IMG/VR virus record: IMGVR_UViG_3300020429_000529
Span: 390,762-454,761 of that record
Reading direction: 5' to 3' (one strand)
Length of the DNA: 64,000 nt
DNA from: a virus
Under the pieces are notes generated by a model. It saw only the letters and a list, made by a program, of their open reading frames with translations. It did no database searches and was not told the DNA's origin. Positions 8,373 to 54,942 of the stretch are shown piece by piece; the stretch's first letter is position 1; every line of letters begins with the position of its first letter. The translations under genes were made by a program, and so were the position numbers.

Positions 8373-9380
8373 ATGGCCGACAACGGGATGCTGGTTTTTG
8401 CTGGCGAACACAGCAAAGTTTTGGGTCGTCGTATCTGCGACCATATGGGAATCGAGCTTGGTAAATCAGAGACCGAGTTCTTCCCTGATGGCGAAATCAT
8501 TGTTCGACTGAAAGAGGATGTTCGAGGTCGAGACTGCTACATCGTTGTCTCTACCTGCAATCCTGTCAATGACAACCTGATGGAGTTGTTGATCTATATC
8601 GATTGCCTGCGTCGAGCTTCGGCAAGGCAGATCGTTGCGGTCATTCCCTATTACGGCTATGGCCGACAGGATCGGAAAGACAAGGGTCGGGTTCCTATCA
8701 CGGCCAAGCTTGTTGCGAACCAGATTGTTTCAGCAGGCGCTCATCGGATACTCGCAATCGATTTCCATGCCGCTCAGATCCAGGGGTTCTTCGATATCCC
8801 TGTCGATCATCTGAGCGCAACGCCAGTATTCGTTGACTTCTTTGAAGAGCGTCGAGACGAGTGGGGAGATCTCTGCCTTGTTTCTCCTGATATCGGGAAT
8901 GTCAAGGTCGCTGAAGGTTTTGCCAACCTGCTTGATGCTGATATCGCCATCATTCACAAGAATCGCAAGAGCGCAACCAGCGTTGAGCCTCGTAAACTTG
9001 TTGGAGATGTTGAAGGCAAAACCGTACTCATGATGGATGACATGATTTCGACGGCAGGCACGATGCGTCGAGCCACGGATTTCGTCATGGAAAGAGGAGC
9101 GAAACAAGTCATCTGCGGCGCTACGCATGGACTCTTTGTTGATGGGGCAGAATCGAGACTGGCGGCAGCAGAGATCAGTCATGTTGCCGTAACGGACACG
9201 ATTCCCTATACTCCGCCGTCTTCACCTGAAGGCTCGGAGCATGCGTCTGATATACTGTGCTTCGCTGACAAGATGAACGTCCTTTCGGTCGCTCCGCTGC
9301 TCGGGGAGGCCATCATTAGAATCCATGACAGCCGCTCTGTAAGCGAACTGCTCAATAAGGGTGCTGGTCTAAAGAGATAG
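8373..9380 (+). CDS. prs: ribose-phosphate pyrophosphokinase (PRPP synthetase)
   Basis: MLVFAGEHS...GEIIVRL...YYGYGRQDRK...DLHA-like...VLMMDDMISTAGTM matches Prs over its full length. An alternative ATG lies at 8358. Confidence 0.85.
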   Translation: MADNGMLVFAGEHSKVLGRRICDHMGIELGKSETEFFPDGEIIVRLKEDVRGRDCYIVVSTCNPVNDNLMELLIYIDCLRRASARQIVAVIPYYGYGRQDRKDKGRVPITAKLVANQIVSAGAHRILAIDFHAAQIQGFFDIPVDHLSATPVFVDFFEERRDEWGDLCLVSPDIGNVKVAEGFANLLDADIAIIHKNRKSATSVEPRKLVGDVEGKTVLMMDDMISTAGTMRRATDFVMERGAKQVICGATHGLFVDGAESRLAAAEISHVAVTDTIPYTPPSSPEGSEHASDILCFADKMNVLSVAPLLGEAIIRIHDSRSVSELLNKGAGLKR

Positions 9381-9775: not shown

Positions 9776-10972
9776 ATGTCTCTTGCAATCCGCAAGACAA
9801 GCTGGCACTATCGCCTCCATGTCTTCATTCGATCGGCATGGGGCTGGAAGCCGTCGCCTACTGAGCGATGGAGTCTCTGCCCCTACTTTCATACAACCCT
9901 TTGGGGTTCGCTTCTGACGCTACTTGCGGTTCCCTTTGCCCTTTTGGGGTGGGTCTGCTGCAAGGCGTTGAGAACGGTCTACAAGGCTGGGGCCAAGGGA
10001 GGTCCGCTCGGCTTTGTTTCTACGATGATCGACGCGACTCCTATCGGCGGGTGGCTTGATGAGGCAGCGGACGGGTACGATGCTGCTCCTATCATCGAGA
10101 GCCTTCGTTGGTTGCTTGTCGTCCTTGGGCTTGCTGCGGGTTTTGCGGGCGTCGTTGGACTGATTGTATTCTTCCTTGGCGGCGGACTTTGGCTGATTCC
10201 TCGAATCCCTGGCGCTGTTTGGACTGCGCTTCTCTACTTTGGTTGGGGGCTCTTTGAGTTCTTCGGGATTCTCGGTTGGGCGCTAATCGGTATCGGCGAT
10301 GGCCTCGTTATCGCTGCTCAGTCTGTCTGGGGCTGGCTCGGCGATTTCGTCAACTGGCTGGGTCGGGTCTTTACTGACGGCGATCTTTGGTTGAACATCG
10401 GTATCGCTGTTCTGCGTATCGTTGCCGCTCTTGTTGGTACTGCTGGCGGCGCTGTCTTGCTCATGGTTGTCCTTGCCTCAAAGCCTGCGAGGGCGGTCTA
10501 CTCTTGGGCAGAAATTCGCGCAAACGGGTACATGGACGCCAGAGAGAAGCGGAAGAACGCGCCGCCGAAGTCTGGTATGAGCATTGGCGCTGCTGTGGCT
10601 GAAACAGCAAAGGACATCGCTGATGATGTCTGCAGGCCCCGCCATAAGCCAAGACGAGAAGGTCCGAGTCTGCTTGAGACGATCCTTCTTGGACTCAAGG
10701 CGTTCGTGCTACTTATCGCCGGATTCTTCCTTGTCATTTGGGTTGCGATCAAGTCTCTGTACGCCCGAGAAGGCTACAAGACGGAGATCATTGACGGGCA
10801 ACCTGTCAAGCGCCGTGTCGAGATCCTTGGTCCGCTTGGTGTTTTCATTAAGTTCCTTGCATCTCTCAAGAAGGGCGCATGTCCTCTCCTTGAGTTTGTC
10901 GAGGACGACGATTTGAGCGACGACGATGACGAGGCCACTGACCCGCCAGCGGGTCAACCTTCTGTCGCATGA
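9776..10972 (+). CDS. hypothetical polytopic membrane protein with acidic C-terminus
   Basis: Multiple hydrophobic helices; DDDLSDDDDE tail. Confidence 0.55.
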   Translation: MSLAIRKTSWHYRLHVFIRSAWGWKPSPTERWSLCPYFHTTLWGSLLTLLAVPFALLGWVCCKALRTVYKAGAKGGPLGFVSTMIDATPIGGWLDEAADGYDAAPIIESLRWLLVVLGLAAGFAGVVGLIVFFLGGGLWLIPRIPGAVWTALLYFGWGLFEFFGILGWALIGIGDGLVIAAQSVWGWLGDFVNWLGRVFTDGDLWLNIGIAVLRIVAALVGTAGGAVLLMVVLASKPARAVYSWAEIRANGYMDAREKRKNAPPKSGMSIGAAVAETAKDIADDVCRPRHKPRREGPSLLETILLGLKAFVLLIAGFFLVIWVAIKSLYAREGYKTEIIDGQPVKRRVEILGPLGVFIKFLASLKKGACPLLEFVEDDDLSDDDDEATDPPAGQPSVA

Positions 10973-11598
10973 ATAGTTGGCGATTACGAGCCCGGGACGC
11001 AGCAGAGGCCATCGACATTCCGTTGGAAGAATGGCATGGCAACTGTTTCGCTATCGCTGTAGCCATTCTCAAAGCAGGTTTAGTTGAGGGCGAAGCGGTT
11101 TATGGCGTCTACCAAGGGCCGATTTCCGCAGATGGCTTCTGGGCCGATAGGAGAAAACTCGCAGGTACAATAGGTGTCCATCATGGTTGGATCGATCTCC
11201 GAAACGGTCAGATCCTTGATCCAACTCGCTGGTCATTTGAAAACGTGGAACCCTACATCCATGAGACTCGTCGGGACGATGAGGAGTACGATGCGTATGG
11301 CATGCGACTCCGATCGCAGCTTCAACAGCCATGCCCTACAAAGAAGCCTTGCGACCAGATAAAGTCGCTTGATCTCTCTGAAGGGGCTCGCGCAACAGTC
11401 TGCACGCTGATGGGACGAGAGAACGAGATAGGCTCCAACGGAGATATGTCCGTTAGCCAGGTTTTCTGGCTTGCAAATCTCGATCCTCAACTTCTCGGCG
11501 AATACGCAGTGGAAATCTACAATGCGATCACAAACGCAAACTTTGGCGCTTTCATTCCAATAGATAGCGACCAGTTCGTCCGAGGAGGGAGATATTGA
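10969..11598 (+). CDS. hypothetical protein
   Basis: ORF with ATGA overlap. Confidence 0.5.
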   Translation: MNSWRLRARDAAEAIDIPLEEWHGNCFAIAVAILKAGLVEGEAVYGVYQGPISADGFWADRRKLAGTIGVHHGWIDLRNGQILDPTRWSFENVEPYIHETRRDDEEYDAYGMRLRSQLQQPCPTKKPCDQIKSLDLSEGARATVCTLMGRENEIGSNGDMSVSQVFWLANLDPQLLGEYAVEIYNAITNANFGAFIPIDSDQFVRGGRY

Positions 11599-11984
11599 GA
11601 GTAGGGAGATATACATCAGGTTTTGACAGTTTTACGCCCGATGCAGGTCAACAAGAGATGATGCATTGTCGGGCGTGTCATGCAAAGATGAATGTCGAGC
11701 GAGGCGTTGTTGGCGCTCGTTCGTATGCATCAGCGATGGCAGGCAGCAAGAGTAAGTATGACCACTTCACTTGTCCGCATGCAGGAGAGGCATGGCATAA
11801 TCAACTGATCGATTTGCTGCAGGAGCAGCGGAAGACATCGAGTCATCAGATCGCAACAATGCTCGGGTCAGAAATCACCACGGTTCGACAGAACAGGATG
11901 CCGACTCTTTCTCGTTATGTAGAGGAGCATGAGCTAAGGCAAGAACATGATCGAATGATGTCGGAGGAACACATTGAAGGATGA
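11595..11984 (+). CDS. hypothetical protein (CxxC...CPH motif)
   Basis: ORF with an overlap junction. Confidence 0.45.
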   Translation: MRVGRYTSGFDSFTPDAGQQEMMHCRACHAKMNVERGVVGARSYASAMAGSKSKYDHFTCPHAGEAWHNQLIDLLQEQRKTSSHQIATMLGSEITTVRQNRMPTLSRYVEEHELRQEHDRMMSEEHIEG

Positions 11985-12552
11985 ACAACTCGAACTTGAT
12001 TTCGCATGGGAGCGAGAACTGGTCTTGATCCGAGGTCTTCCTGGATCCGGCAAATCTACCGAGGCAAATCGTCTCGTTGGTCATTCCGATTTCCTGTCTT
12101 GGCATTCTCATCAGATCGTTGAAGCTGACCTGTTCGCTATGGTTGACGGTCAGTATCGATTTTCTGTGCCTCTGTTGCCGCTTGCTCATTCATGGTGTCT
12201 CGCAGAGGCTATTCGTCGTCTGCGGATGTTTGATCGAGTCGCTGTTGCGAACACTTTTGTCAAGTTGGAGCATGTCGTCCCGTATCTGCTTTGGGCTCGA
12301 AAGATCCGAGCAAGAGTTTGGCTTGTGGAGCCTCAGGGCAACTCTTTGACTGCTGCTGAGTTGGCCGAGCGTAACGTCCATGAAGTTCCCGAGGATCGTA
12401 TCGCAGAGATGAAGGATCAATGGGAGCCTATTTCTCAGGCGTTCGTTGATGAGTTCATTGGCTTACCTGAAGATTTGCGGGGAGGCATGGTCGAAGCTCC
12501 TGTCTCCGAGGGCGTTCCTGAATCGCTCAAGGTCAATCCGTGGGATCAATAA
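11974..12552 (+). CDS. P-loop NTPase / kinase (AAA_33 / polynucleotide-kinase-like)
   Basis: Walker A LIRGLPGSGKST close to the N-terminus, as in Pnk/zeta-type kinases. Confidence 0.55.
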   Translation: MKDEQLELDFAWERELVLIRGLPGSGKSTEANRLVGHSDFLSWHSHQIVEADLFAMVDGQYRFSVPLLPLAHSWCLAEAIRRLRMFDRVAVANTFVKLEHVVPYLLWARKIRARVWLVEPQGNSLTAAELAERNVHEVPEDRIAEMKDQWEPISQAFVDEFIGLPEDLRGGMVEAPVSEGVPESLKVNPWDQ

Positions 12553-12586
12553 ACCACTGACGGGCACGCTGCTACAATGAGGGTGA

Positions 12587-13228
12587 ATGAAGCAGTATCC
12601 GTCCATCGTGGGATCAACGCAAGCCCCTCGGAAGCCTTGTATCGCCTTCCAGAAGCTCGACGGTAGCAATCTGCGCTTCGAATGGCAGCGGAAGACTGGT
12701 TGGCAGAAAAAGTACGGCTCTCGTCAGCGTCTCTTTGATGAGACCGATGAGATGCTCGGACCTTCTATTCCCATTTTCTACGAGACTCTGGCAGATCCGA
12801 TTGAGGCAATTATCCGCGGCGATAAATGGCTTCGACAGCAACAGCGAGTCACGGTGTTCGCTGAATTCTTTGGCCCAAAATCCTTTGCAGGAAATCACGA
12901 CCTGGAGCCTGGAAACGAACCTATGGAGCTTCGGCTCTTTGATGTTTGGGTTTATAAGTACGGGTTGATTGGGCCAAGAGACTTCATCAAGACGTTCGGT
13001 CATCTGCCGACGCCCGAAGTCGTTTACGAAGGCAATCTCAATGCAGAGTTCATTGCCGATGTCAAGGCTGGTCGCTACAATCTTGGCGACGGCATCGAGG
13101 AAGGCGTTGTTTGCAAGGGAGGCAAGGGAGGTCATCGAGACCTGTGGATGGCGAAGATCAAAACTGACGCCTACATCGCGAAACTCAAGGAAGTTTTTCG
13201 GGTTGGCTGGGAACAGTACGCTGAATAG
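12587..13228 (+). CDS. ATP-dependent RNA ligase (nucleotidyltransferase, KxDG motif)
   Basis: YPSI...KLDGSN is ligase motif I, followed by EFFG and KIK-type downstream motifs. About 213 aa, the size of minimal Rnl-family ligases. Confidence 0.65.
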   Translation: MKQYPSIVGSTQAPRKPCIAFQKLDGSNLRFEWQRKTGWQKKYGSRQRLFDETDEMLGPSIPIFYETLADPIEAIIRGDKWLRQQQRVTVFAEFFGPKSFAGNHDLEPGNEPMELRLFDVWVYKYGLIGPRDFIKTFGHLPTPEVVYEGNLNAEFIADVKAGRYNLGDGIEEGVVCKGGKGGHRDLWMAKIKTDAYIAKLKEVFRVGWEQYAE

Positions 13229-13237
13229 GAGAACCTT

Positions 13238-13456
13238 ATGGCAAGGCACAATGACATCAACAACATCTTCCATTTCGGTCGCATCATTGGCGGCGGACGA
13301 GGAAGTCGAAGCAGCGGCGTAGGAAGGTCGTCTTCCAGAGACGACACTTTCTCTCCCAAGCAGAGACGAGACCCGTTCTATCGGAGTCCGTTCTGCAGCA
13401 ACAAGGACAAGAGGGGCACTTGCAACTGCGCAAGATGCAGGACAGATTGGATGTAA
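13238..13456 (+). CDS. hypothetical small Cys-containing protein
   Basis: AGGAG RBS 6 nt upstream of the ATG. Confidence 0.45.
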   Translation: MARHNDINNIFHFGRIIGGGRGSRSSGVGRSSSRDDTFSPKQRRDPFYRSPFCSNKDKRGTCNCARCRTDWM

Positions 13457-13461
13457 GAGCC

Positions 13462-13656
13462 ATGCGATTCGCATACGAGGCAACGAATAGTTCTGGTCGT
13501 ATTTTCACGGGCGTCGTCGAGGCTACCGATGAGAACAAGGCTGTTGAGCAAGTTCGATCGATCGGTTTCATCCCGATCAAGGTCAATAAGACCAAGCGCA
13601 AGGTCTCGGGCGCAACGATGAAGAAGACGATCCGAGAGTTGATCGGTATCAGGTGA
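13462..13656 (+). CDS. small protein resembling the N-terminal domain of GspF/PilC (T2SS/T4P platform protein), fragment-sized
   Basis: MRFAYEATNSSGRIFTGVVEATDENKAVEQVRSIGFIPIKV follows the PilC/GspF N-terminal pattern (F-Y-A-d-G-x-G-xEA-A-L-G-P). Confidence 0.35.
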   Translation: MRFAYEATNSSGRIFTGVVEATDENKAVEQVRSIGFIPIKVNKTKRKVSGATMKKTIRELIGIR

Positions 13657-13681
13657 CACCGATTTCTGATAAGGTGTACGC

Positions 13682-14242
13682 ATGCCTTGGAGAGTATGGA
13701 AACCGGAGTTCAGCCCCGACAAGACCTTGACAGAGGTTCTGTCAACGATGCCTCGCGATGAACCTGAAAAGGTTCCGTGGCAAATCAAACTCCTGGAAAA
13801 TCCCAAAAGCCCCTTGAGGCTGCCTGGCGCAATAAGCCTGTTCAGGCATGATTGTCTTCATGCTATGCTTTGCACTTCGTTCTACAGCGAGTGCGAGGCT
13901 TGGACTCTCGGGTATACGATGGGAGCAGCGAAGAACGTTTCTCGTTTCCATGTTTGGCTCTTCAAACGATGGTCTGCTTTTTATCCTGGTCAGTATGCTT
14001 TGACAGACAAGGATCTTGAGCATTTCGACAGAGGCTTTGAGAAGGGGCGAGAATCTCCGATTCGAGATGTCCATCTCATCCCTTTCGAGCGACCTGAATA
14101 CCAGGAAATGACCATGGGCGATCTTCGTAAACGGTTCAATCTGCATTGGATCGACGAAGATCATGAGTACCAGCAATGGGCTGCAGATCGGTGGGGCGAT
14201 AAGCCCCTGATGGAAGAAACAGAACCAGCGGAGACCTCCTAA
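13682..14242 (+). CDS. hypothetical protein
   Basis: ORF. Confidence 0.5.
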   Translation: MPWRVWKPEFSPDKTLTEVLSTMPRDEPEKVPWQIKLLENPKSPLRLPGAISLFRHDCLHAMLCTSFYSECEAWTLGYTMGAAKNVSRFHVWLFKRWSAFYPGQYALTDKDLEHFDRGFEKGRESPIRDVHLIPFERPEYQEMTMGDLRKRFNLHWIDEDHEYQQWAADRWGDKPLMEETEPAETS

Positions 14243-14664
14243 TGGGTTGCAGCTACACGGCGTACACGGTCATCGGATGTCGAGTTCCTGATAGCAGGAT
14301 GTACCGAGAGACTCAGGTCAAGGCTTTTGACCACAACTTCGGCGAGGACATGAAGTTCGATCCGCAGACGGGCAAGCCTCTGTGGAGAACCGAACGAATG
14401 CTGGTCAATGGCGATGATTATCTGGATCAGAGTGACTTCGGAGGCTTTTACGCCGTAACAGATGATCCTGAACGACCAGATTTTTACTACATCGGCGTCG
14501 GATCAGAATCAAGTCCTAAGTACGACCACGGCAACGGTCCTGCTCGTATGGACTTCCCGGTTGAAGATGAGGTCAAGGCTCGCCTCAAAGAGTACCTTGA
14601 GCCGCTCGGCCTTTGGGATGAGGCGGAGTTTGGCATCTGGACCGTCCAGTATGTAGGATGCTGA
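14242..14664 (+). CDS. hypothetical protein
   Basis: ORF with TAATG junction. Confidence 0.5.
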   Translation: MGCSYTAYTVIGCRVPDSRMYRETQVKAFDHNFGEDMKFDPQTGKPLWRTERMLVNGDDYLDQSDFGGFYAVTDDPERPDFYYIGVGSESSPKYDHGNGPARMDFPVEDEVKARLKEYLEPLGLWDEAEFGIWTVQYVGC

Positions 14665-14667
14665 CTT

Positions 14668-15183
14668 ATGACCGCAACAGGCACCATCTCGATCGTCAAG
14701 CCGAAGACTGCGCCGTCTCCTGATATCGGCGACATTCTTGATGGCGCTGATTTTCTTGCGGAACTGCTGACCGACGAGCAGGCGGATCAGATCAGAGCGC
14801 ATGATCTTTCATTGGTTCATGAGAATCATTGGATCGCTCTTGAAAGGCTTGGCATTGATGCTGCTGAGCTTATCGAGCAGGTCAAGTACGAATGCCCGTT
14901 TCGGCCTGGTACATTCTTTTTCCACATGTATCCGCTCTATATCTCTCGGCTCTATCCGTCAGAGGTTCGAGACTGGTACAAGATCATGGTCGAGACAGAG
15001 CCTCAGGATGATTCTCTCATCCGAGCGCCTTTCGCGAGCAATGTCGATCATTCGTTCATGGGGCACGGGTATTCCAAATGGATTCTTCCTCATGATGGCG
15101 GCGGCAAATGGTGCTGGGCCAAGATCAGCTTGAGCGATGGTCGTTGGCTTCTCGTTCAGTATTTCGAGTGGTACAACAAATAG
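14668..15183 (+). CDS. hypothetical protein
   Basis: ORF. Confidence 0.5.
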   Translation: MTATGTISIVKPKTAPSPDIGDILDGADFLAELLTDEQADQIRAHDLSLVHENHWIALERLGIDAAELIEQVKYECPFRPGTFFFHMYPLYISRLYPSEVRDWYKIMVETEPQDDSLIRAPFASNVDHSFMGHGYSKWILPHDGGGKWCWAKISLSDGRWLLVQYFEWYNK

Positions 15184-15191
15184 GAGTCGCC

Positions 15192-15674
15192 ATGTCTGAT
15201 ACAGGTCATAACAAGAAATGCCCCTGCTCGATATGCGACATGGAGAAACAGGGCGTAGATCGCGCTGATGCTATCGCTGCCGTTGAAGCTCAGCGGCGAG
15301 ATATGATGAGCAAGTACGGCTGGTATGTTCAGGCTGTTGTCGTTGACGATGATGAATCGCCAACCGGGTACAATGTTCATACGCACGGCTGTGACGAATC
15401 TTGGGGACATCCTGATTTTCAGGTTGTTTTGCCGATCGATCCGAAGATCGCCCATTCGATTATCGCCAATCTTGTCGAGAGGGTCAAGGAAGGCGAAAAG
15501 TTCGCTCACGGAGATCGGGTCGAAAACATTATTGGCAACGATCTTGAAGTCATGCTCGTTGAGGCAACCGAAAATAGGCGAACCGTTCTTCGCATCATTC
15601 TGCCTGATGCAGATGGCGTACTGCCTCCGACGACAGAAACATACGCAAGTCAACTTGAAGGAACAGCCGCCTAA
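15192..15674 (+). CDS. DUF4262 family protein
   Basis: YGWYVQAV...YNVHTHGCDESWGHPDFQVVLPIDPK follows the DUF4262 pattern (YTxGL...HPELxv). AGGAG RBS. Confidence 0.5.
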   Translation: MSDTGHNKKCPCSICDMEKQGVDRADAIAAVEAQRRDMMSKYGWYVQAVVVDDDESPTGYNVHTHGCDESWGHPDFQVVLPIDPKIAHSIIANLVERVKEGEKFAHGDRVENIIGNDLEVMLVEATENRRTVLRIILPDADGVLPPTTETYASQLEGTAA

Positions 15675-15699
15675 GTAGGGCGAGAATAACGGAGAAATA

Positions 15700-16035
15700 A
15701 TGAGCAACGCGCAAGACCTGACTTCTGAAACCCTTCCCGCAGCTATTGCTTCTGGCGTGGCTCTGGTTGACTTCTGGGCTACATGGTGCCCTCCATGTAA
15801 GATGCTGAGTCCCATCGTCGATGCGGTCGCTGCTGAGTTCGATGGAAACGACGGCGTAACCATCGCTAAGGTTGATGCTGATGCAGAGGCATCGCTTGTC
15901 AGCCAATACAGTGTTTCGGCTCTGCCGACCATTCTGATCTTCAAGGATGGGCAGATCGTTGAGCGTTTTGTTGGCCTCAGAGACCAGCAGTCTCTTGTTG
16001 ATGCTGTGAATAAGGCGTTGGGAGAATCTGATTGA
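15700..16035 (+). CDS. thioredoxin
   Basis: WATWCPPCKMLSPI active site (CPPC variant) within a Trx-fold-length protein. Confidence 0.8.
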   Translation: MSNAQDLTSETLPAAIASGVALVDFWATWCPPCKMLSPIVDAVAAEFDGNDGVTIAKVDADAEASLVSQYSVSALPTILIFKDGQIVERFVGLRDQQSLVDAVNKALGESD

Positions 16036-17015
16036 GTACGCCAAAGAGAGCGCATCTTCTTGTTGGGATGCAAGGCTCTGGTAAAAGCACCGTTGCAAAG
16101 GTCTTTGAGGGCGGCGGCTGGAAGGTTCTCAACAGAGACTCTATTGGCGGACGGTTGCCCGACCTGATTCCGCATATGGTCAGGATCCTTAAATCTGGCG
16201 AGGGCGTTGTTCTTGATAACACCTTCGTCAACAGAGAGGCAAGAGCCCCGTTTATCAAGGCAGCGAAAGAAGCAGGAGCAGAGGTCGTTTGCTCTGTTAT
16301 GCAGGCAACGATCGAAGAATGCCAATGGGCTGTTTGCCGTCGCATGATGGAGAAGTACGGCAGACTGTTGATGCCCGAAGATTTCAAGAATCTCAAGAAA
16401 GACCCGAGCGTCTTTCCTCCGATTGTCCAATACACCTTCCGAAACAACTACGAAGAGCCCGCGATCGATGAGGGCTTTGACCATATTGACTCTTGGCCCT
16501 TCTCAAGAGAAGTGCCTTGGGATTTCGAAGGCAAGGCATTGATCCTTGATTACGATGGGACTCTTCGGGTTACTAAGTCAGGCGCGAAATGGCCGACAAA
16601 CCCGGATGATGTTGAGATCATGGAGAATCGAGCAGAGGTTCTTCGTCGTTATCAGGATGAAGGATACCTGCTTCTTGGCGCAAGCAATCAGAGCGGAGTC
16701 TCTAAAGACAACCCCTCTCTTGATGTTTGTCAGAAATGCTTCGATCGGACCAATGAGCTTCTCGGTCTTGATATCGAAGTCTCGTTCTGTCCTCATAGGG
16801 CTGGCGTTCCTCAGTGCTATTGCCGGAAGCCTATGCCTGGTATGGGCGTCGAGATGGTATTCAAGCACAAGCTTGACCCGAAGAAATGCATCATGGTTGG
16901 AGACGCAAAGACCGACAAAACTTTCGCGGATCGTAATGGATTTCAGTTCCAATACGCAGATAAGTTCTTTGCATCGTCGGCCACTGACAGAAGCGACAGG
17001 ACAGTAAGCGTATGA
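16032..17015 (+). CDS. polynucleotide kinase-phosphatase (T4 Pnk-like: N-terminal P-loop 5'-kinase plus C-terminal HAD 3'-phosphatase)
   Basis: LVGMQGSGKST Walker A, then ILDYDGTL (DxDGT HAD motif I) and the downstream MVGDAKTD HAD motif. Confidence 0.8.
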   Translation: MSTPKRAHLLVGMQGSGKSTVAKVFEGGGWKVLNRDSIGGRLPDLIPHMVRILKSGEGVVLDNTFVNREARAPFIKAAKEAGAEVVCSVMQATIEECQWAVCRRMMEKYGRLLMPEDFKNLKKDPSVFPPIVQYTFRNNYEEPAIDEGFDHIDSWPFSREVPWDFEGKALILDYDGTLRVTKSGAKWPTNPDDVEIMENRAEVLRRYQDEGYLLLGASNQSGVSKDNPSLDVCQKCFDRTNELLGLDIEVSFCPHRAGVPQCYCRKPMPGMGVEMVFKHKLDPKKCIMVGDAKTDKTFADRNGFQFQYADKFFASSATDRSDRTVSV

Positions 17016-25907: not shown

Positions 25908-26602
25908 TGGATGATTTCAAAGGGAAAGTCTGTATCAATGAAAAAGGTCGCATTGGTCTTGTGACCAATCGCACTGGAATTCCCTGGCAATGGTCTGGCA
26001 AAGATTTGTCTGATGATAGCTGGTGGGAGGCCAAGACTTTTCGCGTATTGTATGATTCGCTTGAAGAATATGAACGAGATCGTCACGTTCTCGGCATAGG
26101 CAAAGAGTATCACAACGACAAGTACGAGCGATGGACCATGGATCAAGCGTTCATGTCCATGGCCTTCTGCATGTCGAAGTGTTCGCATGATTCAAATACG
26201 CAGCATGGCGCTGTTGTTGTAGATGAGAGAAGTCATCCTCTTGCTTCTGGTTGCAATGGATGGCTTCCGAAGTCTCCCGATTCTCTGATGCCTAATACCA
26301 GAGAAGGCGGCTTCAAGTATGCCCATGTTCGTCATGCGGAAATAAACACCCTGAGTCAGGCGACTCGATCAGATCTCAGCGGATGCCGCATATATGTGAC
26401 TGGTCTTCCATGCAACAACTGCATGAGCGAGATCATTGCGCGCGGCATCCGCGAGGTCATTGTCGGAGATGTAGGCCATGTTTTCGGCGATGGCTTTTGG
26501 GAGATGCATAACTTCCTGGTTCGATCTCACGGAGTTACCGTTCGGTATTTTGACGATGAAATTGTGGATACGTCAAAGACCAGGAGATTGAAGCATGGAT
26601 GA
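25907..26602 (+). CDS. dCMP/cytidine deaminase family protein (second, tandem)
   Basis: VRHAEINTL ... GLPCNNCMSEI (HAE plus PCxxC). Confidence 0.7.
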   Translation: MDDFKGKVCINEKGRIGLVTNRTGIPWQWSGKDLSDDSWWEAKTFRVLYDSLEEYERDRHVLGIGKEYHNDKYERWTMDQAFMSMAFCMSKCSHDSNTQHGAVVVDERSHPLASGCNGWLPKSPDSLMPNTREGGFKYAHVRHAEINTLSQATRSDLSGCRIYVTGLPCNNCMSEIIARGIREVIVGDVGHVFGDGFWEMHNFLVRSHGVTVRYFDDEIVDTSKTRRLKHG

Positions 26603-26930
26603 TGACAACTTGCCGCCATTCACCATCAACTGCAACGATATTGGCGAAGGTACATCTCTTGCAGTAGTTTGGAATATGTACCTGCGTACTCTTGCCATAC
26701 TAAATCAGACAAGCTCTGTTGAAATACCACCAGGTGAAGACGTAGCAGAGTATCTTACAGAGAAGGCGAGAACGATCCTCATCAAGTCTGCGAATATCGT
26801 CAAGGGCAACAGGGATGAGAATGCTCCATTGGACGAAGATTACCTGTTCGAGCATGCTCTGAAGAACTGCAGTTACATGCTTGAAAACATGACCGGCGAT
26901 CCGTATGAACGACTTAGCGATCAAGGTTGA
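26595..26930 (+). CDS. hypothetical protein
   Basis: ORF. Confidence 0.45.
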   Translation: MDDDNLPPFTINCNDIGEGTSLAVVWNMYLRTLAILNQTSSVEIPPGEDVAEYLTEKARTILIKSANIVKGNRDENAPLDEDYLFEHALKNCSYMLENMTGDPYERLSDQG

Positions 26931-27990
26931 TGCAAAGCAACTTGTCAAAACAGTCATTGAGCGATTCAAGAGACTCAATCCTGAACTGACTCGCACTATG
27001 GTTGCCTTGTCAGGCGGCGCAGATTCCGTTGCGCTCCTTTATTGCCTGTCTCGGATCAAAGAGCTTGATCTTTGCGCCGTTCACATCATGTATGATATTC
27101 GTCCCGAAGAACAAGCGGGTCGAGATCGACAGGTCGCAATTGAAGCCGCAACCAAATGCGATGTTGACATTTTGACCAAGCGCGTCAAGATGCAAGAATG
27201 GATGCAGGACAAAGGCGAGAAGAACCTCGAAGCAGCCGCAAGGAATGCTCGGTACTACTGGCTTGAGAATCTGTTTGATCTTCGGCTTTCTTCTGCGCCA
27301 AACCAGAACTTCATTCGCTACGAACATTTCAACCGCAATGAGGGCTATATCGCTACGGCTCATCATGCCGACGATCAGCTTGAGACTGTCCTTATGTTCC
27401 TGGTGCGAGGTACTGGTCTTCGAGGGATGGCTGGTATTGCTCCTAAGCAACAAATCAGAGGCAACGGCAAGACGCTTGTTCGCCCCATGCTGGATCTCAC
27501 GCATGAAGAGACGAAAGCCATCTGCGAGTATGCTGAACTGGATTGGGCTGAAGACGAGACGAATAACGATACGGATCTGACTCGCAATAAGATCAGGCAC
27601 GAAATCGTTCCTCGCATGAGAGAGATCAACCCGAAGGTTGCGCAGCATTTTGTCAACTCTGCTGATATTGCCAGAAGCGCTCTCGAAACAGTCGAAGACG
27701 CTTGCGCTCATCGCATCCGCCCTGAATGGGGGTTCTGCACGCCTGGCGTTCGAGTCTCAACGAACACCGATTCGCTGAGACTCGTTGAAGATGTAGTCAT
27801 CTACGAATGGCTTGGGACAGCCGTCCGTAGCATCACCGGCGGACGAGGACTTGATCGGGTGACAAAGAGGATGCTCGATGAAGTAACCTCTGCCATCCGA
27901 GATCGAAAGTACCGCAAGTTTGATTGGCCCGGCGTTGAGGTTCATGTCGGTCAAGAACGGGTAACAATCCAGAGAGCAAGTCAGAAATGA
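26905..27990 (+). CDS. tilS: tRNA(Ile)-lysidine synthetase-like PP-loop ATPase (TilS family)
   Basis: VALSGGADSVAL (SGGxDS PP-loop) and ATAHHADDQLETVLM (TilS signature). Confidence 0.7.
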   Translation: MNDLAIKVDAKQLVKTVIERFKRLNPELTRTMVALSGGADSVALLYCLSRIKELDLCAVHIMYDIRPEEQAGRDRQVAIEAATKCDVDILTKRVKMQEWMQDKGEKNLEAAARNARYYWLENLFDLRLSSAPNQNFIRYEHFNRNEGYIATAHHADDQLETVLMFLVRGTGLRGMAGIAPKQQIRGNGKTLVRPMLDLTHEETKAICEYAELDWAEDETNNDTDLTRNKIRHEIVPRMREINPKVAQHFVNSADIARSALETVEDACAHRIRPEWGFCTPGVRVSTNTDSLRLVEDVVIYEWLGTAVRSITGGRGLDRVTKRMLDEVTSAIRDRKYRKFDWPGVEVHVGQERVTIQRASQK

Positions 27991-28403
27991 ACGAACCCGA
28001 TTGGACAAAGGACACTCTTACCAATGGCGAGACGCTTGGTCCTGCGATGGAGATCGAGACTGAGGATGAGGCTCGCCAGTATCTCGACAACTATGTCGAT
28101 TGGATGGTCGTCAAGCACGGCATGTCCCGAGTCGAGGCTCTGAATGTCGCCAAGCAGAACATCGGCTACTATTCAGGCTACTATGGCGTTGATACGCAAC
28201 GTCGGGTTGAACGAGTCTTCAAGTGCGTGCATCCAATCTTCGGTTCAACGAGCGGCGAACAAATGAGCGTTCAGGAGATTCTTGAGCAAGGTCGAAAGAT
28301 GGGCGAGGAATCCAAAAAGGGCAAGGGTCTAAAGATGCCCCATGGTCAGCCTACTGGCGTTCCAACCAGAATGTCGAGAGGCGATTTCGTTGAGTTTGAC
28401 TAA
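27987..28403 (+). CDS. hypothetical protein
   Basis: ORF with ATGA junction. Confidence 0.5.
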   Translation: MNEPDWTKDTLTNGETLGPAMEIETEDEARQYLDNYVDWMVVKHGMSRVEALNVAKQNIGYYSGYYGVDTQRRVERVFKCVHPIFGSTSGEQMSVQEILEQGRKMGEESKKGKGLKMPHGQPTGVPTRMSRGDFVEFD

Positions 28404-29278
28404 TGACACAGGTTCATTGGCTTGTAGAAGACGGTCCTTTCGAAGAGGACATCGGCCCTCTGCTTGAGGAGATCAAGCGGCAAGGTCATCCATTGAGAAC
28501 GGTCAAGTACGAACCGTTCGAGAGCGGCAACTATCGGGATCTGTATCCCGAGAACGCATGCGTTGTCTTCTACGGATCGATCAACCTTGCGCAGCAGTTG
28601 CAGCGACAGACGCCTTGGGTTCCTGGCCCTCTCGTAACCTTCGACCACTACAAGTGTTCAACATATTTCGCGCATTGGGGAAAGCATCTTCTCAACTCCG
28701 AGTACCTGATGATGCCCTATGCAGAAGTATGCCGACGAAGGCACGAGATTTGCCGTCGCTTCGGTCATCTTGAGCCCGAGAAATCTTCGCTGTTCATTCG
28801 TCCCGACGATGGACGCAAGACGTTCGGCGGGCACGTTGCGTATGAGCATGACTTCGAGCGAATTGGCGGACCTGTTGGTCAGTATGCCCGTCCTGAAACG
28901 ATGGTTGTTGTCTCGTCTCCGAAGAACCTCTACTACGAATGGCGTATCATCGTCTGCGATGGCAAGGCCATTTCTGGCTGTCAATACAAGTGGGCTGACA
29001 AGCTGACTCTTGATCCCAAAGTACCTGATGCTGTTTGGGAGAAGGCAAACGAGGTGGCCTCTTGCGGTTGGCATCCTGATCGGATGTACGTTCTTGACAT
29101 CGCTAACTGGGGGCCAGGAGCTTATGGCGGTCATGACGGGTACTATGGTCAGATGTTCTTGATCGAGGCCAACTCTTTTGCCTGTTCGGGTTTCTACTGC
29201 TGCGATCCAGAGCCTATCGTCCGAGAGGCCTCAAGGGTCGCCCTTGAAGAATGGCAAGATATCTACGCCCCGATCTAA
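28403..29278 (+). CDS. ATP-grasp-like protein
   Basis: FIRPDDGRKTFGGHV ... YEWRIIVCDGKAISGCQYKW resemble ATP-grasp B and C domain motifs; weak. Confidence 0.4.
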   Translation: MTQVHWLVEDGPFEEDIGPLLEEIKRQGHPLRTVKYEPFESGNYRDLYPENACVVFYGSINLAQQLQRQTPWVPGPLVTFDHYKCSTYFAHWGKHLLNSEYLMMPYAEVCRRRHEICRRFGHLEPEKSSLFIRPDDGRKTFGGHVAYEHDFERIGGPVGQYARPETMVVVSSPKNLYYEWRIIVCDGKAISGCQYKWADKLTLDPKVPDAVWEKANEVASCGWHPDRMYVLDIANWGPGAYGGHDGYYGQMFLIEANSFACSGFYCCDPEPIVREASRVALEEWQDIYAPI

Positions 29279-29320
29279 GCAGGTGACGCCACTGACGCCT
29301 ATAATGCTGTAGAGGTATTT

Positions 29321-30589
29321 ATGGGCGATACGAAGACATCTCGAATGGCGGTTCTGGATCAGAAGACCACGGGCGGCGTTCCGGTCAAGATCTGGGCAAC
29401 AGAAACCGATCCTGACACAGGAAAGTCATACCCGTCTGTCGATCAGAACACGATCCTGCAAGCGTCCATGGCGGCTCGTCTGCCATTCGCTTTCCGTCAT
29501 GTTGCTCTCATGCCCGATGCGCATGCTGGTTACGGTCTGCCCGTAGGCGGCGTTTTCGCGGCAAAGGGAGCAATCCTCCCCTACTTCGTGGGAGTTGATA
29601 TCGGATGCGGCATGTGCGTCCTCAACACCGAAGTTCCGATCGATCAGATCGATGTTCCGAAGCTCATGGAAGATTGGGGCGCATCGATACCTGTGGGTCA
29701 GTCTTCTCGCTCAAACAGCGATCTCTGGTTGAGCGAAGAGCATGTCAAGCGAACGGCTGACAAGTTCGAGGAAGATCACGGTAAGGTCGAAGACAAGCAC
29801 AACATCAAGCTGCCTGACCTCGCAAGAGCAAGGGTTCAGTTGGGTACGCTCGGAGGCGGCAACCACTTTGTTGAGTTGCAGGTCGATCCGAACGGCATCG
29901 CCCATATCATGATCCATAGCGGATCGAGGGGTTTTGGTGCGCGCACCTGCGAGATGTTCCATGACATCGCCCGCCGTCTCTGCCTTAGCTGGCATGTCAA
30001 GCTTGAGAGCGACAAGTGCGCATTCCTTCCGGTTGAAACGGACGAGGGGCAGGCGTACATCGATGCGATGCGACTTGCGCTCGACTATGCGTTCCAGAAT
30101 CGCTCAACGATGATGCGATGCGCTCGTCATGCGCTTGAGCAGCAGGTCGGACGAGTCGCCCCGCTCAAGGGGACGATCAACATCCACCACAACTACGCCG
30201 ACCTGGAAAACCACTTCGGCGAGAATGTTTGGGTGCATCGAAAGGGAGCTACGCTCGCTCGTCAGCAGACGACTGGCATCATTCCTGGTTCGATGTGCGC
30301 CAAGAGCTACATCGTCAAGGGCAAGGGCTCGAAGGATTCGTTCATGTCATGCTCGCATGGCGCGGGACGTAACTTCAGCCGTAGCGAGGCGAAGCGACAG
30401 GTCGCTGAGGGCGAAGTTCCTACTCAGAAGGCTCAGTTGCAGAGCGCGGGCGTTTCGGTCCATGGTGCTTCCGAGGTTCATGACGAACTCGGGCACGCCT
30501 ACAAGGACATTTCTGTTGTCATGGCAAACCAGTCGGACCTCATTGATATCCATGAGGAACTGACTCCTGTTGCTGTTCTCAAGGGGTAA
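29321..30589 (+). CDS. rtcB: RtcB-family RNA ligase (3'-phosphate/5'-OH)
   Basis: MPDAHAGYGLPVGGV, GVDIGCGM, LGTLGGGNHFVELQ, SCSHGAGR are all RtcB signature blocks. Confidence 0.85.
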   Translation: MGDTKTSRMAVLDQKTTGGVPVKIWATETDPDTGKSYPSVDQNTILQASMAARLPFAFRHVALMPDAHAGYGLPVGGVFAAKGAILPYFVGVDIGCGMCVLNTEVPIDQIDVPKLMEDWGASIPVGQSSRSNSDLWLSEEHVKRTADKFEEDHGKVEDKHNIKLPDLARARVQLGTLGGGNHFVELQVDPNGIAHIMIHSGSRGFGARTCEMFHDIARRLCLSWHVKLESDKCAFLPVETDEGQAYIDAMRLALDYAFQNRSTMMRCARHALEQQVGRVAPLKGTINIHHNYADLENHFGENVWVHRKGATLARQQTTGIIPGSMCAKSYIVKGKGSKDSFMSCSHGAGRNFSRSEAKRQVAEGEVPTQKAQLQSAGVSVHGASEVHDELGHAYKDISVVMANQSDLIDIHEELTPVAVLKG

Positions 30590-30591
30590 TC

Positions 30592-30867
30592 ATGTTCTTT
30601 GCACCGCCGCCTCCTGCAGTCAAGACTCCCGCTTTGTCTAAGACCAGATGGAGCAAGGGAGTTACTCATGATGGCTACCATGTCAGAGCAGGTCAGCTTG
30701 TGAGCGTTCGTCCCGATCTTCTGCCCGAGGGCGCGATCGGACATGTCGAAAAGGTTTCCGGCGTTGACAGCAAGGGCAACGCATACTCAGGTTACGCGGC
30801 GTCCGCATGGAGAGGGAAGCCTATCCCTCTCAAGGATTGCGTTACCGAAGTCGAGATAAAGAAATGA
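30592..30867 (+). CDS. hypothetical protein
   Basis: ORF. Confidence 0.45.
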   Translation: MFFAPPPPAVKTPALSKTRWSKGVTHDGYHVRAGQLVSVRPDLLPEGAIGHVEKVSGVDSKGNAYSGYAASAWRGKPIPLKDCVTEVEIKK

Positions 30868-31393: not shown

Positions 31394-31966
31394 ATGACAG
31401 ATCAACAAGATGTCATGCGAATCCTTGACGGTCTTGACTGGGAACCCATTCGAGATATTCTCAAGGAAACAACCTGTCAGCTTCGTATCGGCGAACAGAT
31501 CGAAGAAAGCGACGGGGCAACGCATGTTTTCATGATGCCCTCTGTTGATGATGTCGCCAATCCTGATGAGTTCGATTTCATCGACCTGACTTTCATCTAT
31601 ATTGGCGTTCACAAGGAGAAGGCAGCGGAGGCTCGTCAGCGACTCGTTGAGCTACTTGCTCCGGGCGAAGAAGCATGGAAGCTTGGGCCGAGCTACATGC
31701 ATGTCGGAGCAGCGATTGGCGACCAGGGCGGCGCTCTGATGCTGTTCGCTCTCGGTCGAGCGTTGAATCTTTGGCAGATTCTTTCCCCGCAAACGATGAT
31801 GGGGCTATCGAGAGATCATCCTCTGTCTCAGCAGATGGCTGGTCAAGGGATGGTCAACATCCAAGGCTGGTTCCCTGATGGGAGCGCAGAACAAGAACCC
31901 AATCTGCCTGCCAATGTTGGGCATCGCACGGAGCAAGAACAAGATGATCGAGATCACGAAGGGTAA
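31394..31966 (+). CDS. hypothetical protein
   Basis: ORF. Confidence 0.5.
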   Translation: MTDQQDVMRILDGLDWEPIRDILKETTCQLRIGEQIEESDGATHVFMMPSVDDVANPDEFDFIDLTFIYIGVHKEKAAEARQRLVELLAPGEEAWKLGPSYMHVGAAIGDQGGALMLFALGRALNLWQILSPQTMMGLSRDHPLSQQMAGQGMVNIQGWFPDGSAEQEPNLPANVGHRTEQEQDDRDHEG

Positions 31967-32546
31967 GTTTCGGCGGCTGAATGAACCCATCAAGGGGAAG
32001 CCGAACTACCTGCGCATTGTTTCTGAGCGATTCGAGGTAGAAGAACCCGATGGGCCTGGTATCATCGGCCCTGCTGTTCGCGAGTTCATTCATACTCGCA
32101 ATGCTGTAGCGGTGCTGCCGATCTGCCCGTCTGAGCAGAAGATCCTGATCGCTCGGCAGTTCCGTATGCCCGTAATGCATGATACGGGAGATTACCAGCG
32201 AGCGTGGATCTACGAGGCTCTCGCTGGCGTTATCAGCGACGGCGAAGATCCGATCGATTGCGGCGTTCGGGAAACTTTGGAAGAATCGAGCGTCGTCGTT
32301 CTTCCTGAGAGAATGAAGTTGGTCGCCGATTACTATGTCTCGCCAGGAGTCTCCTCAGAGCGTCACTACGTCTTCACCTGCGAGGTTGACGCTGCGGAGC
32401 CCTCGGAGCCCTCTGGCGGTCTGGAAGAGGAACACGAGGCTCTCAAGCCTGCCTGGTTGACCTTCGATGAGATCCGAGCCCTGCGCTCGGGCGGCAGAAT
32501 CGAAGACGGCAAGACGATTATGGCCCTGATGTCTGCTGGGCTGTAA
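31944..32546 (+). CDS. Nudix hydrolase (ADP-ribose pyrophosphatase-like)
   Basis: Nudix box GVRETLEESSVVV; NudF-like overall layout. Confidence 0.65.
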   Translation: MIEITKGKFRRLNEPIKGKPNYLRIVSERFEVEEPDGPGIIGPAVREFIHTRNAVAVLPICPSEQKILIARQFRMPVMHDTGDYQRAWIYEALAGVISDGEDPIDCGVRETLEESSVVVLPERMKLVADYYVSPGVSSERHYVFTCEVDAAEPSEPSGGLEEEHEALKPAWLTFDEIRALRSGGRIEDGKTIMALMSAGL

Positions 32547-52430: not shown

Positions 52431-54393
<1,963 letters not shown>

Positions 54394-54394
<1 letters not shown>

Positions 54395-54942
54395 TGGGCA
54401 ACGTCGATCTCCAACAAGCCTGGTCTCGCGTCGAAAGGATGTTCAAGTCCTACGGCTTTCCGTATAAAGTCGTGAGCAAGTCGCCAGGTATCTGTTGGAA
54501 CGGCGAGTACGGCAACATCATCGATCCTACGGGCAGCTACCGCAAGCTCAGCAACGCCATCCATGAGTTCTCTCATTGGATCGTCGCTGCCGATCGGCGG
54601 CGAACTCAACCAGAGTTCGGCTTGGGTAGCTGCCCCGATGCATGGGGAAGCGTTCGAGAAACAGTCAAAACAACCATCTCCTTCAAGGCCGCTGATCTTG
54701 AGGAGTCGCATGTCAGCGTTCTCGGCATCCTCATCGAGAAGACGATGGGGCTCGACCCGATGGATACGGCCATCGAACACAGTTGGGAAGACCCAACGAC
54801 TGAATACCCCGATGACGGCGATCCGATCGCTAACGACAAAACCTTTCAGAAGCGTGCGCGAAAACTTGTCGAACGAGGCATACTCCGAGATGACCTGACA
54901 TTTCCGCTTCGCAAGCCCAAGCTGACGGAGGTCGCAGCGTGA
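54394..54942 (+). CDS. hypothetical protein
   Basis: ORF. Confidence 0.5.

Follow-up and report, generated by a model that had tools for sequence, protein, structure and literature searches.

The stretch of DNA considered here, hereafter the window, comprises 64,000 nucleotides of the virus record IMGVR_UViG_3300020429_000529 in IMG/VR (positions 390,762 to 454,761 of that record) and is numbered from its first letter. It has a G+C content of about 52%, and its + strand holds nearly all of the credible genes. Five open reading frames (ORFs), all on this strand and spread within 19 kb, encode the enzymes that are the subject of this work: a stand-alone P-loop kinase with a polynucleotide-kinase fold, a minimal ATP-dependent RNA-ligase-type nucleotidyltransferase, a bifunctional polynucleotide 5'-kinase/3'-phosphatase (Pnkp), a tRNA(Ile)-lysidine synthetase (TilS)-like enzyme of the PP-loop type, and the RNA ligase RtcB. 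Judging from their sequences, both sealing chemistries would be encoded, as a previous inspection of the letters alone (the sequence-only reading) had pointed out: the joining of 5'-phosphate and 3'-OH ends by the ATP-type ligase, and that of 3'-phosphate or 2',3'-cyclic-phosphate ends with 5'-OH ends by RtcB. We consider it reasonably probable that this loosely clustered set keeps tRNAs functional during infection, be they those of the phage or those of its host, by means of two routes.

The window is most likely part of a marine genome of about 0.5 Mb belonging to a huge phage, an assignment based on its relatives and on its gene content (GroEL, a sigma factor, and tRNA arrays); no virion genes were seen within the window. 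Contigs of 498,549-502,461 bp from several independent marine metagenome assemblies, including those of Tara Oceans, encode proteins identical to the ligase, the stand-alone kinase, Pnkp, and a metallophosphoesterase of the window. Since the five enzyme ORFs are identical or nearly so across independent assemblies, they represent real genes and not chance ORFs. A 5.2 kb region gave no nucleotide match by megablast against 50,697 phage records. Related loci are designated here by labels (L009, L014, etc.), of which L189 and L190 belong to the same genome of about 0.5 Mb beyond the window, and all Pfam scans covered 70 window ORFs.

Enzymes predicted to act on RNA ends and on tRNA

The ligase-like gene (12587-13228, +) encodes a protein of 213 amino acids that consists only of an Rnl2-like PF09414 catalytic domain. 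It had been described from the sequence as a KxDG RNA ligase, a description whose coordinates and domain are borne out by the Pfam match, the motifs, and the predicted fold. The match to the Pfam family RNA_ligase (PF09414) is marginal, with 30.8 bits versus a cut-off of 27, and phrog_548, annotated as 'RNA ligase', scores 36 bits. Across 29 homologs, the residues of motif I (K23 in KLDGSN, of the general form KxDGSN) are invariant, and motifs III to V are likewise present on alignment and invariant: E93 (FAEFFG) in motif III, D119 (LFDV) in motif IIIa, E172, G173, and K177 (EGVVCK) in motif IV, and K190 and K192 (AKIK) in motif V. An hhalign comparison with T4 Rnl2, the sequence of which was verified at 100%, places K23, E93, and F118-D119 onto K35, E99, and F119-D120 of the T4 enzyme (E 0.0025). 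The protein has no NCBIfam match and no meaningful match in the PDB by sequence or by profile search, so structure prediction was needed. The resulting AlphaFold2 (AF2) model is a single domain with a predicted local distance difference test score (pLDDT) of 93.9, and the top 33 Foldseek matches to this model are RNA ligases or a putative ligase, with query-normalised TM-scores (TMq) of 0.54-0.70; DNA ligases rank lower. Among those matches are Trypanosoma brucei REL1 (1xdn), T4 Rnl2 (2hvr), the Aquifex protein 3qwu, Rnl5, the Naegleria Rnl, T4 Rnl1, and the archaeal Rnl3.

With T4 Rnl2 and T. brucei REL1, the protein shares the nucleotidyltransferase fold, the motifs I, III, IIIa, IV, and V, and an N-terminal 'KxYPxI' start. 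However, whereas T4 Rnl2 has 334 amino acids, a C-terminal domain, and the motif KIHGTN, the ligase described here carries KxDGSN, has no C-terminal domain, and ends 21 residues past motif V; moreover, contrary to those enzymes, the family of small ligases to which it belongs is tied to huge phages and to their tRNA arrays. To our knowledge, a ligase of about 200 amino acids is shorter than any polynucleotide ligase characterised to date. An exhaustive profile search recovered 415 clusters of this family at 50% identity (E<=1e-30), nearly all of them 195-230 amino acids long.

The kinase gene (11974-12552, +) lies immediately upstream and encodes 192 amino acids. Its earlier description as a P-loop kinase holds, in coordinates and in domain, on the evidence of Pfam (AAA_33, 32.4 bits versus a cut-off of 27), PHROG (phrog_2071, 81 bits; phrog_505, 'polynucleotide kinase', 25 bits), and the AF2 model. 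The P-loop reads GLPGSGKST, and the family to which the protein belongs is made up of 'predicted kinases' of 125-190 amino acids with invariant RGLPGSGKS, D52, Y61, AHxWC, VANTF, and H136. In Foldseek, the model (pLDDT 88) has the kinase domain of T4 Pnk as its top match (1ly1, E 3e-6, TMq 0.55); it also matches the Clostridium thermocellum Pnk 4jst (root-mean-square deviation 3.0 over 143 columns), and next come PSTK and the mammalian PNKP. The invariant D52 is located 24 residues past the lysine of the P-loop and, to judge by this position, might plausibly act as the general base; VANTF stands in place of the D-N/T-T of Pnk, and there is no invariant lid arginine. The protein is, by its sequence and fold, a candidate 5'-OH end-healing kinase.

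The third gene (16032-17015, +) encodes the bifunctional Pnkp, in which a P-loop kinase is followed by a DxDGT phosphatase of the HAD-IIIA type with a CxH...CxC-RKP loop. The sequence-only reading had called it a T4-type Pnkp. The coordinates, the presence of a kinase and a DxDGT phosphatase, and the T4 domain order all stand, but the sequence lineage is a different one. In a MAFFT alignment with the T4 Pnkp sequence (verified at 100%), the catalytic residues of both domains do fall into register: in the kinase, GMQGSGKST, NRD36, DNT, and the lid arginine R137 correspond to K15/S16, D35, D85, and R126 of T4, and, in the phosphatase, D173/D175 (DYDGT), S218, RK266P, and GD291 correspond to D165/D167, S211, K258, and D278. 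Overall identity to T4 Pnkp is nevertheless about 27%, and phrog_505 (39 bits) matches the kinase part only. Both domains find their best match in mouse and human PNKP (1yj5, E 1.4e-19), in reversed order, and the phosphatase additionally resembles the HAD-IIIA proteins GmhB and HisB. In the Pfam scans, the kinase matches AAA_33 (48 bits) and the phosphatase PNK3P (50.8 bits); TIGR01662 for HAD-IIIA scores above its cut-off (77.7 bits), and TIGR01664 for DNA 3'-phosphatases gives a weak match. Even though the DxDGT, NQ, RKP, GD, and P-loop/NRD/DNT motifs are shared with mammalian PNKP (1yj5, 3zvl), the phage protein has the kinase before the phosphatase and the GmhB/HisB-type loop, and it lacks the FHA domain, so that it does not have the eukaryotic architecture; the eukaryotic model TIGR01663 scores 98.3 versus a cut-off of 502.8. 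Full-length homologs in the phage collection are limited to LR756511 (41.8% identity) and LR756500. The TTG start at 16032, which overlaps the stop of a thioredoxin gene and is preceded by GGGAGA, is better than the later ATG chosen by gene callers, because the latter would remove the strand before the P-loop.

TilS (26905-27990, +; 361 amino acids) and RtcB (29321-30589, +; 422 amino acids) were both correctly located and identified from the sequence. The TIGR02432 N-terminal domain of TilS is matched with 160.7 bits versus a cut-off of 93.6, and Pfam ATP_bind_3 with an E-value of 2.5e-44. Its SGGADS, HHADDQLET, and TRNKIRH motifs align with those of the Aquifex aeolicus TilS 1wy5, and the Geobacillus TilS 3a2k was also aligned. 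The protein thus shares the N-terminal PP-loop catalytic domain and the TilS-specific motifs with the Aquifex enzyme and with the tilS product of phage PA5oct, one of the few jumbo phages in which tilS has already been annotated. The alignment with the Aquifex enzyme extends to residue 267 of 361 and includes a short insertion near residue 127; the last 95 residues or so match no TilS model, no substrate-binding or C-terminal domain was matched in Pfam, and the full-length model NF007942 scores 96 versus 606. Identity to any record of the phage collection is at most 35%. The codon AUA is a minor one in the genes of the window (4.9 per thousand, 47 of the 549 Ile codons). For this reason, a tRNA encoded by the phage is a likelier object of TilS than some unusual demand for this codon. 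TilS is an enzyme of tRNA modification, not of repair.

RtcB, on the other hand, is the 3'-phosphate/5'-OH RNA ligase of the set. It matches PF01139 (354 bits, model positions 1-426) and phrog_1075 (363 bits), and its MPDAHAGYG, GVDIGCGM, GGGNHF, IHSGSRG, and SHGAGR motifs align with RtcB proteins of solved structure (TTHA1785). Like the RtcB proteins of Escherichia coli, Pyrococcus horikoshii, Thermus, and phage phiRSL1, it is full length and has all of the metal-binding and GMP-histidine motifs; phiRSL1 provides the best named phage homolog, with 41.5% identity.

Gene order and the link of the ligase family to tRNA arrays

The start of the kinase gene overlaps the upstream ORF by 11 nucleotides (nt), and its stop is located 34 nt before the ligase start. 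Three orphan ORFs of 398, 209, and 129 amino acids (9776-11984, +) precede the kinase, and are probably co-translated with it, since overlaps of 4-11 nt join them to one another and to the start of the kinase gene; the largest of them has six homologs, none annotated, in 5.8 billion proteins. Seven ORFs, including a thioredoxin and a DUF4262 protein, separate the ligase from Pnkp, and about 10 kb separate Pnkp from TilS. The latter is part of a string running in one direction (25377-30867) with overlaps or gaps of at most 42 nt, which consists of two dCMP deaminases, an ORF, TilS, an ORF, an R2K-clade ATP-grasp protein, RtcB, and a final ORF. Promoter-like and terminator-like sites were no commoner than in shuffled sequence.

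The R2K-clade protein (28403-29278, +; R2K_2 53.6 bits, R2K_3 43.1 bits) is a predicted peptide or amino-acid ligase, whose gene abuts the upstream ORF with its start and ends 42 nt before RtcB; it could be an accessory factor, but whether it belongs to the set is uncertain. The two tandem deaminases upstream of TilS (25377-25907 and 25907-26602, +) were considered as tRNA deaminases of the TadA type and rejected as such, as both match dCMP deaminases; there is also a weak match to 'anti-phage dCTP deaminase'. No archease, RtcA, 2H/LigT, Hen1, KptA, or CCA-adding enzyme was found by Pfam among the scanned ORFs of the window.

The conservation of this neighbourhood was assessed by searching 85 related loci with 43 proteins of the window (tblastn). 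No protein was found as a partner of the ligase in more than seven of these loci, a number reached by the R2K homologs, which are at most 10 kb away from the ligase-like gene in L007, L008, L017, L031, L055, L056, and L084. In a further lineage, that of L014 and L018, whose ligases are about 54% identical to the one described here, the genes for Pnkp, the ligase-like protein, and RtcB share one strand and fit into 8 kb (L014) or about 11 kb (L018).

What the loci of the ligase family often do have is tRNA genes nearby. In the phage collection, homologs of the ligase are confined to the huge phages LR756511, LR756502, LR745206, LR745208, and XacN1, and the Lak megaphages. The first four are genomes of 485-642 kb from the 'Clades of huge phages' set, and XacN1 has 385 kb; its homolog is annotated only as a hypothetical protein. 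IMG/VR contains 255 relatives of the ligase, and the viral contigs that carry them reach 572 kb. After dereplication of the ligase-like loci at 90% identity, 68 loci remained, of which 15 have their nearest tRNA gene no more than 300 nt from the ligase gene, 24 no more than 2 kb, and 31 no more than 10 kb away. All of the 398 tRNA genes at these loci share the strand of the ligase. RtcB loci would not provide a neutral control, because RtcB itself sometimes adjoins tRNA genes; hence, IMG/VR loci of the phosphoribosyl pyrophosphate (PRPP) synthetase were used. The corresponding numbers for this control, which is imperfect in that its contigs are partly a different set, are 2, 9, and 14 of 81 loci (Fisher p = 2e-4 at 300 nt, 6e-4 at 2 kb, and 3e-4 at 10 kb). 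Among published huge phages, tRNA arrays are found 2-5 kb from the ligase homolog in three of four (LR756502, LR745206, and LR745208); LR756511 and XacN1 have no such nearby array. Searches of the literature on this topic found no description of a family of catalytic-domain-only ligases embedded in tRNA arrays.

Individual loci illustrate how close this association can be. In L032, the last of 38 tRNA genes ends 208 nt upstream of the ligase-like gene; a tRNA-Met gene ends 5 nt upstream of it in both L074 and L042, and a tRNA-Lys gene 18 nt upstream in L009. In several arrays beside the ligase-like gene (L031, L032, L068, L072, and L074; e.g., L032:6185-6279), ARAGORN predicts long Ile, Asn, Trp, Lys, and Pro tRNAs of 88-95 nt, each with an acceptor stem of 8 bp and a large extra loop, which are either real oddities or mispredictions. 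A tRNA-Pro(UGG) gene follows the RtcB homolog after 6-47 nt on the same strand in three IMG/VR loci (L094:10467-10544, L095:11238-11309, and L096:2773-2844).

Regarding the genome of the window itself, the sequence-only reading had proposed to look for tRNA genes elsewhere in the genome, and they were found beyond both window ends in the approximately 17 kb of outside DNA that was read. Six tRNA-Leu genes (tag, gag, caa, gag, cag, taa) are encoded on the + strand from 8.3 kb past the window end (L189:19388-20392); this array reaches near the edge of the readable DNA and may continue, and exact-match scans of the metagenome collection aimed at extending it gave no match. A tRNA(CUA) of the amber-suppressor type, labelled tRNA-Pyl by ARAGORN, is located about 7 kb before the window start (L190:1029-1104), and similar CUA tRNAs occur in the related loci L027, L037, L040, L055, L057, and L077. 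Despite the CUA tRNA of this genome, the ORFs of the window read through normally under the standard bacterial code. As the ligase family is found near tRNA arrays and its own genome has tRNA genes beyond the window, a tRNA-directed role for the ligase is plausible.

Other genes of the window

The gene for a calcineurin-like metallophosphoesterase (2832-3725, +; Pfam Metallophos, phrog_1649) has homologs in L009 (57% identity) and L010 (36%), where at most a few kb separate them from the ligase-like gene. Speculatively, this protein might be an extra end-healing enzyme, i.e., a 2',3'-cyclic phosphodiesterase or a phosphatase. It is the second of three consecutive genes at 1879-4101 (+), encoding a GT4 glycosyltransferase, the metallophosphoesterase, and a NADAR protein, of which the first two overlap and the third begins after a gap of 67 nt; the trio is syntenic in the relative L009.

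The HisRS-like paralog proposed from the sequence (5353-6066, +) is a truncated class II core of 237 amino acids by ORF, or 227 by the gene callers. The core itself, motifs 1 and 2, and the His-binding region are present, but the protein lacks the insertion and the anticodon-binding domain: it scores 143.7 bits with TIGR00442, versus a cut-off of 286.75, and aligns with residues 32-164 and 258-297 only of the E. coli HisRS. The relative L009 has instead a short GluRS/GlnRS-like gene flanked by tRNA-Glu genes. PHROG scans of the small flanking ORFs found no RNA-repair factor.

Three further + strand genes are known from Pfam matches on the source contig: a protein with a prepilin-type N-methylation motif (6530-6865), a sigma-70-family factor (7848-8357), and a T2SSF_N-like ORF of 78 amino acids (13420-13656). 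The PRPP synthetase (8358-9380, +), an AAA_28 protein resembling the NadR kinase (24690-25367, +), and a NUDIX hydrolase (31878-32546, +) hint at nucleotide or NAD salvage in this region. A LAGLIDADG-like homing endonuclease gene (21228-21935, +) is called with 235 amino acids in one assembly and 317 in another (L002:18646-19599) of one genome, which suggests strain-level variation at this site. Towards the end of the window, a GroEL (Cpn60) gene is followed by a gene for an EpmC-like protein (elongation factor P hydroxylase) at about 52772-54942 (+), and the other strand carries a Fic-domain gene (61193-61798, -). In this G+C-rich stretch, a long antisense ORF (52754-54379, -) was rejected as spurious, the true gene being the + strand GroEL.

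Proposed upkeep of tRNAs and competing explanations

The following model can be proposed for the enzymes of this set. Broken RNA with a 5'-OH end and a 3'-phosphate or 2',3'-cyclic-phosphate end could be rejoined in either of two ways. In the first, the 5'-OH end would be phosphorylated by the kinase domain of Pnkp or by the stand-alone Pnk-like kinase, and the 3' end would be dephosphorylated by the DxDGT phosphatase of Pnkp; the healed ends would then be sealed by the minimal ligase through a Lys23-AMP intermediate and an adenylylated RNA (AppRNA), which would be attacked by the 3'-OH. In the second, RtcB would join 3'-phosphate or 2',3'-cyclic-phosphate ends directly to the 5'-OH through a His-GMP intermediate, with no healing. 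Separately from both routes, TilS would convert C34 of tRNA-Ile(CAU) into lysidine.

The closest known counterpart of the first route is the tRNA repair of phage T4, where Pnkp and Rnl1 reverse the damage caused by PrrC. Here too, a kinase-phosphatase with the same domain order would heal ends with a 5'-OH and ends with a 2',3'-cyclic phosphate, and an ATP-dependent ligase would seal them. However, the ligase of the window is a PF09414 catalytic domain and not an Rnl1, and it lacks the tRNA-specificity domain of the latter; furthermore, RtcB and a second, stand-alone kinase are also encoded here. A wider resemblance is to the repair systems of jumbo and huge phages, for which RtcB plus an ATP-dependent RNA ligase, polynucleotide kinase, PNK-fused HAD phosphatase, R2K ATP-grasp proteins, and large tRNA complements have been reported (PMC7824862, PMC7162821). 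[quoted passage not shown] A role in tRNA repair or maintenance agrees with the way in which these jumbo and huge phages have been interpreted (PMC7824862; Al-Shayeb et al. 2020, PMC7162821), and rtcB has also been described as a co-regulated neighbour of tRNA arrays in cyanobacteria (PMC8421152). Since such combinations of RtcB, Rnl, and PNK-HAD proteins have already been published, the arsenal itself is already known in kind; TilS, on the contrary, is not mentioned in either of the two phage papers (PMC7824862, PMC7162821).

The role in tRNA repair and maintenance that had been suggested from the sequence is thus upheld in part. The enzymes, the published readings of jumbo phages, and the tRNA arrays speak for it, but the kinase-ligase pairing is absent in the closest relatives and TilS is no repair enzyme. 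Several further observations weigh against it. The adjacency of kinase and ligase is not conserved: one of the 85 loci has a homolog of the kinase within 10 kb of its ligase gene, and the relative L009, of 70% identity, has none; RtcB and Pnkp are found within this distance in five and four of the 85 loci, respectively, about what chance would give in genomes of 300-500 kb. The window contains no tRNA (tRNA scan) or other Rfam family (E<=1), the ligase is about 59 kb from the nearest tRNA array detected in its own genome, and the proximity statistics of the family depend on the imperfect control mentioned above. The nearest characterised relatives of Pnkp are DNA-repair enzymes. No observation points to a host anticodon nuclease as the target, and a host nuclease as the cause of the damage is, like the action of the enzymes on RNA or tRNA and their cooperation, something we infer; the activities themselves are predicted from homology and conserved catalytic residues. 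Finally, the ligase has none of the accessory domains of its better-known relatives (the C-terminal domain of Rnl2, the N-terminal OB domain of Rnl5, or the C-terminal tRNA-specificity domain of Rnl1). The isolated nucleotidyltransferase domain of T4 Rnl2 reportedly self-adenylylates and seals pre-adenylated nicks, and cannot complete nick sealing. Given this precedent, a bare catalytic domain such as the ligase of the window may need a partner or a special substrate.

A further, tentative proposal concerns the ligase alone, and we consider it possible without favouring it: the proteins of about 200 amino acids could form a distinct, uncharacterised clade of polynucleotide ligases, nearly exclusive to huge phages and tied to tRNA arrays, which would act on phage tRNAs and whose member in this genome would have escaped from its array. 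The function of such ligases could be repair or an unrecognised maturation step, e.g., the joining or trimming of the unusual long tRNAs. They might act alone on a tRNA-shaped substrate or together with a partner in trans and, in the present genome, the ligase and the adjacent Pnk-like kinase might constitute a two-gene heal-and-seal unit.

A more sober explanation, which we regard as somewhat unlikely, would be that the five genes are a list of parts without a pathway. In this case, they would be independent auxiliary genes that happen to share an extensive early or auxiliary region in which genes of nucleotide, NAD, and translation functions abound, each of the five acting alone, such as RtcB on damaged RNA, Pnkp on DNA ends, and TilS on a phage tRNA. 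The many unrelated or unknown ORFs that separate the ligase from Pnkp and the latter from TilS would fit this explanation, as would the mixed gene content of the surrounding 32 kb (glycosyltransferase, NADAR, PRPP synthetase, thioredoxin, Dam methylase, MazG, dCMP deaminases, and NUDIX), the unconserved protein neighbours of the ligase over the 85 loci, and the frequency of promoter-like and terminator-like sites, equal to that of shuffled sequence. Nevertheless, in the lineage of about 54% identity represented by L014 and L018, the genes for Pnkp, the ligase-like protein, and RtcB are likewise found near each other (8-11 kb, one strand), and a kinase and a phosphatase yield exactly the ends that an ATP-dependent ligase needs. 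Moreover, across jumbo phages, the occurrence of polynucleotide kinases and HAD phosphatases follows that of ATP-dependent RNA ligases (PMC7824862).

The same enzymes could also be devoted to the maturation of tRNAs instead of the repair of damaged ones, with the ligase, and perhaps the kinase, Pnkp, and RtcB, processing phage tRNA transcripts by joining pieces or removing insertions, with no host nuclease involved. The embedding of the ligase family in co-oriented tRNA arrays, often 5-300 nt from a tRNA gene, is what such a function would predict, and so are the RtcB homologs located 6-47 nt before tRNA-Pro(UGG) in three IMG/VR loci and the array tRNAs predicted to be unusually long (88-95 nt) for types that are normally short; TilS, itself a maturation enzyme, would complete the process. 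However, these long tRNAs are ARAGORN predictions in which the acceptor stem, of 8 bp, is odd and the extra loop lacks structure, no splicing endonuclease was found by Pfam in the scanned ORFs of the window, and the ligase of this genome is located outside any array. In addition, we know of no precedent for protein-dependent tRNA splicing in bacteria or phages, and consider this explanation unlikely.

It is very unlikely that the set is directed to DNA, with Pnkp healing breaks with 5'-OH and 3'-phosphate ends and the small ligase sealing duplex nicks, e.g., those with a 3'-OH ribonucleotide, in replication or repair of the very large genome: even though both Pnkp domains are nearest to mammalian PNKP, a DNA-repair enzyme, TIGR01664 is also weakly matched, one small ORF separates the Pnkp gene of L014 from the gyrase A gene that precedes it, and Rnl2 and Rnl5-type ligases, which are structural neighbours of the ligase, seal duplex nicks, the fold and the Pfam family of the ligase sort with RNA ligases ahead of DNA ligases, its family is linked to tRNA arrays, RtcB and TilS of the same region are RNA-specific, and at least one relative has a separate bona fide DNA ligase (PF01068) near the small ligase.

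The upkeep of tRNAs by two routes remains, therefore, the explanation we favour. What these findings add is the documentation of such a tool kit, together with a TilS of a kind rarely seen in phages, in an abundant and repeatedly assembled marine genome of about 0.5 Mb without a close relative in the phage collection. The arsenal as such is in line with earlier comparative work on jumbo and huge phages, according to which phages of hundreds of kb carry tRNAs along with redundant routes of RNA repair, presumably against the tRNA-cutting defences of their hosts. The family of minimal ligases is a more interesting side lead than the arsenal as such: it is a large family of RNA-ligase-like proteins, and its place inside tRNA arrays offers a concrete and testable hypothesis about its function. 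Were a ligase of 200 amino acids to be specific for tRNA, it would also have practical value as a reagent.

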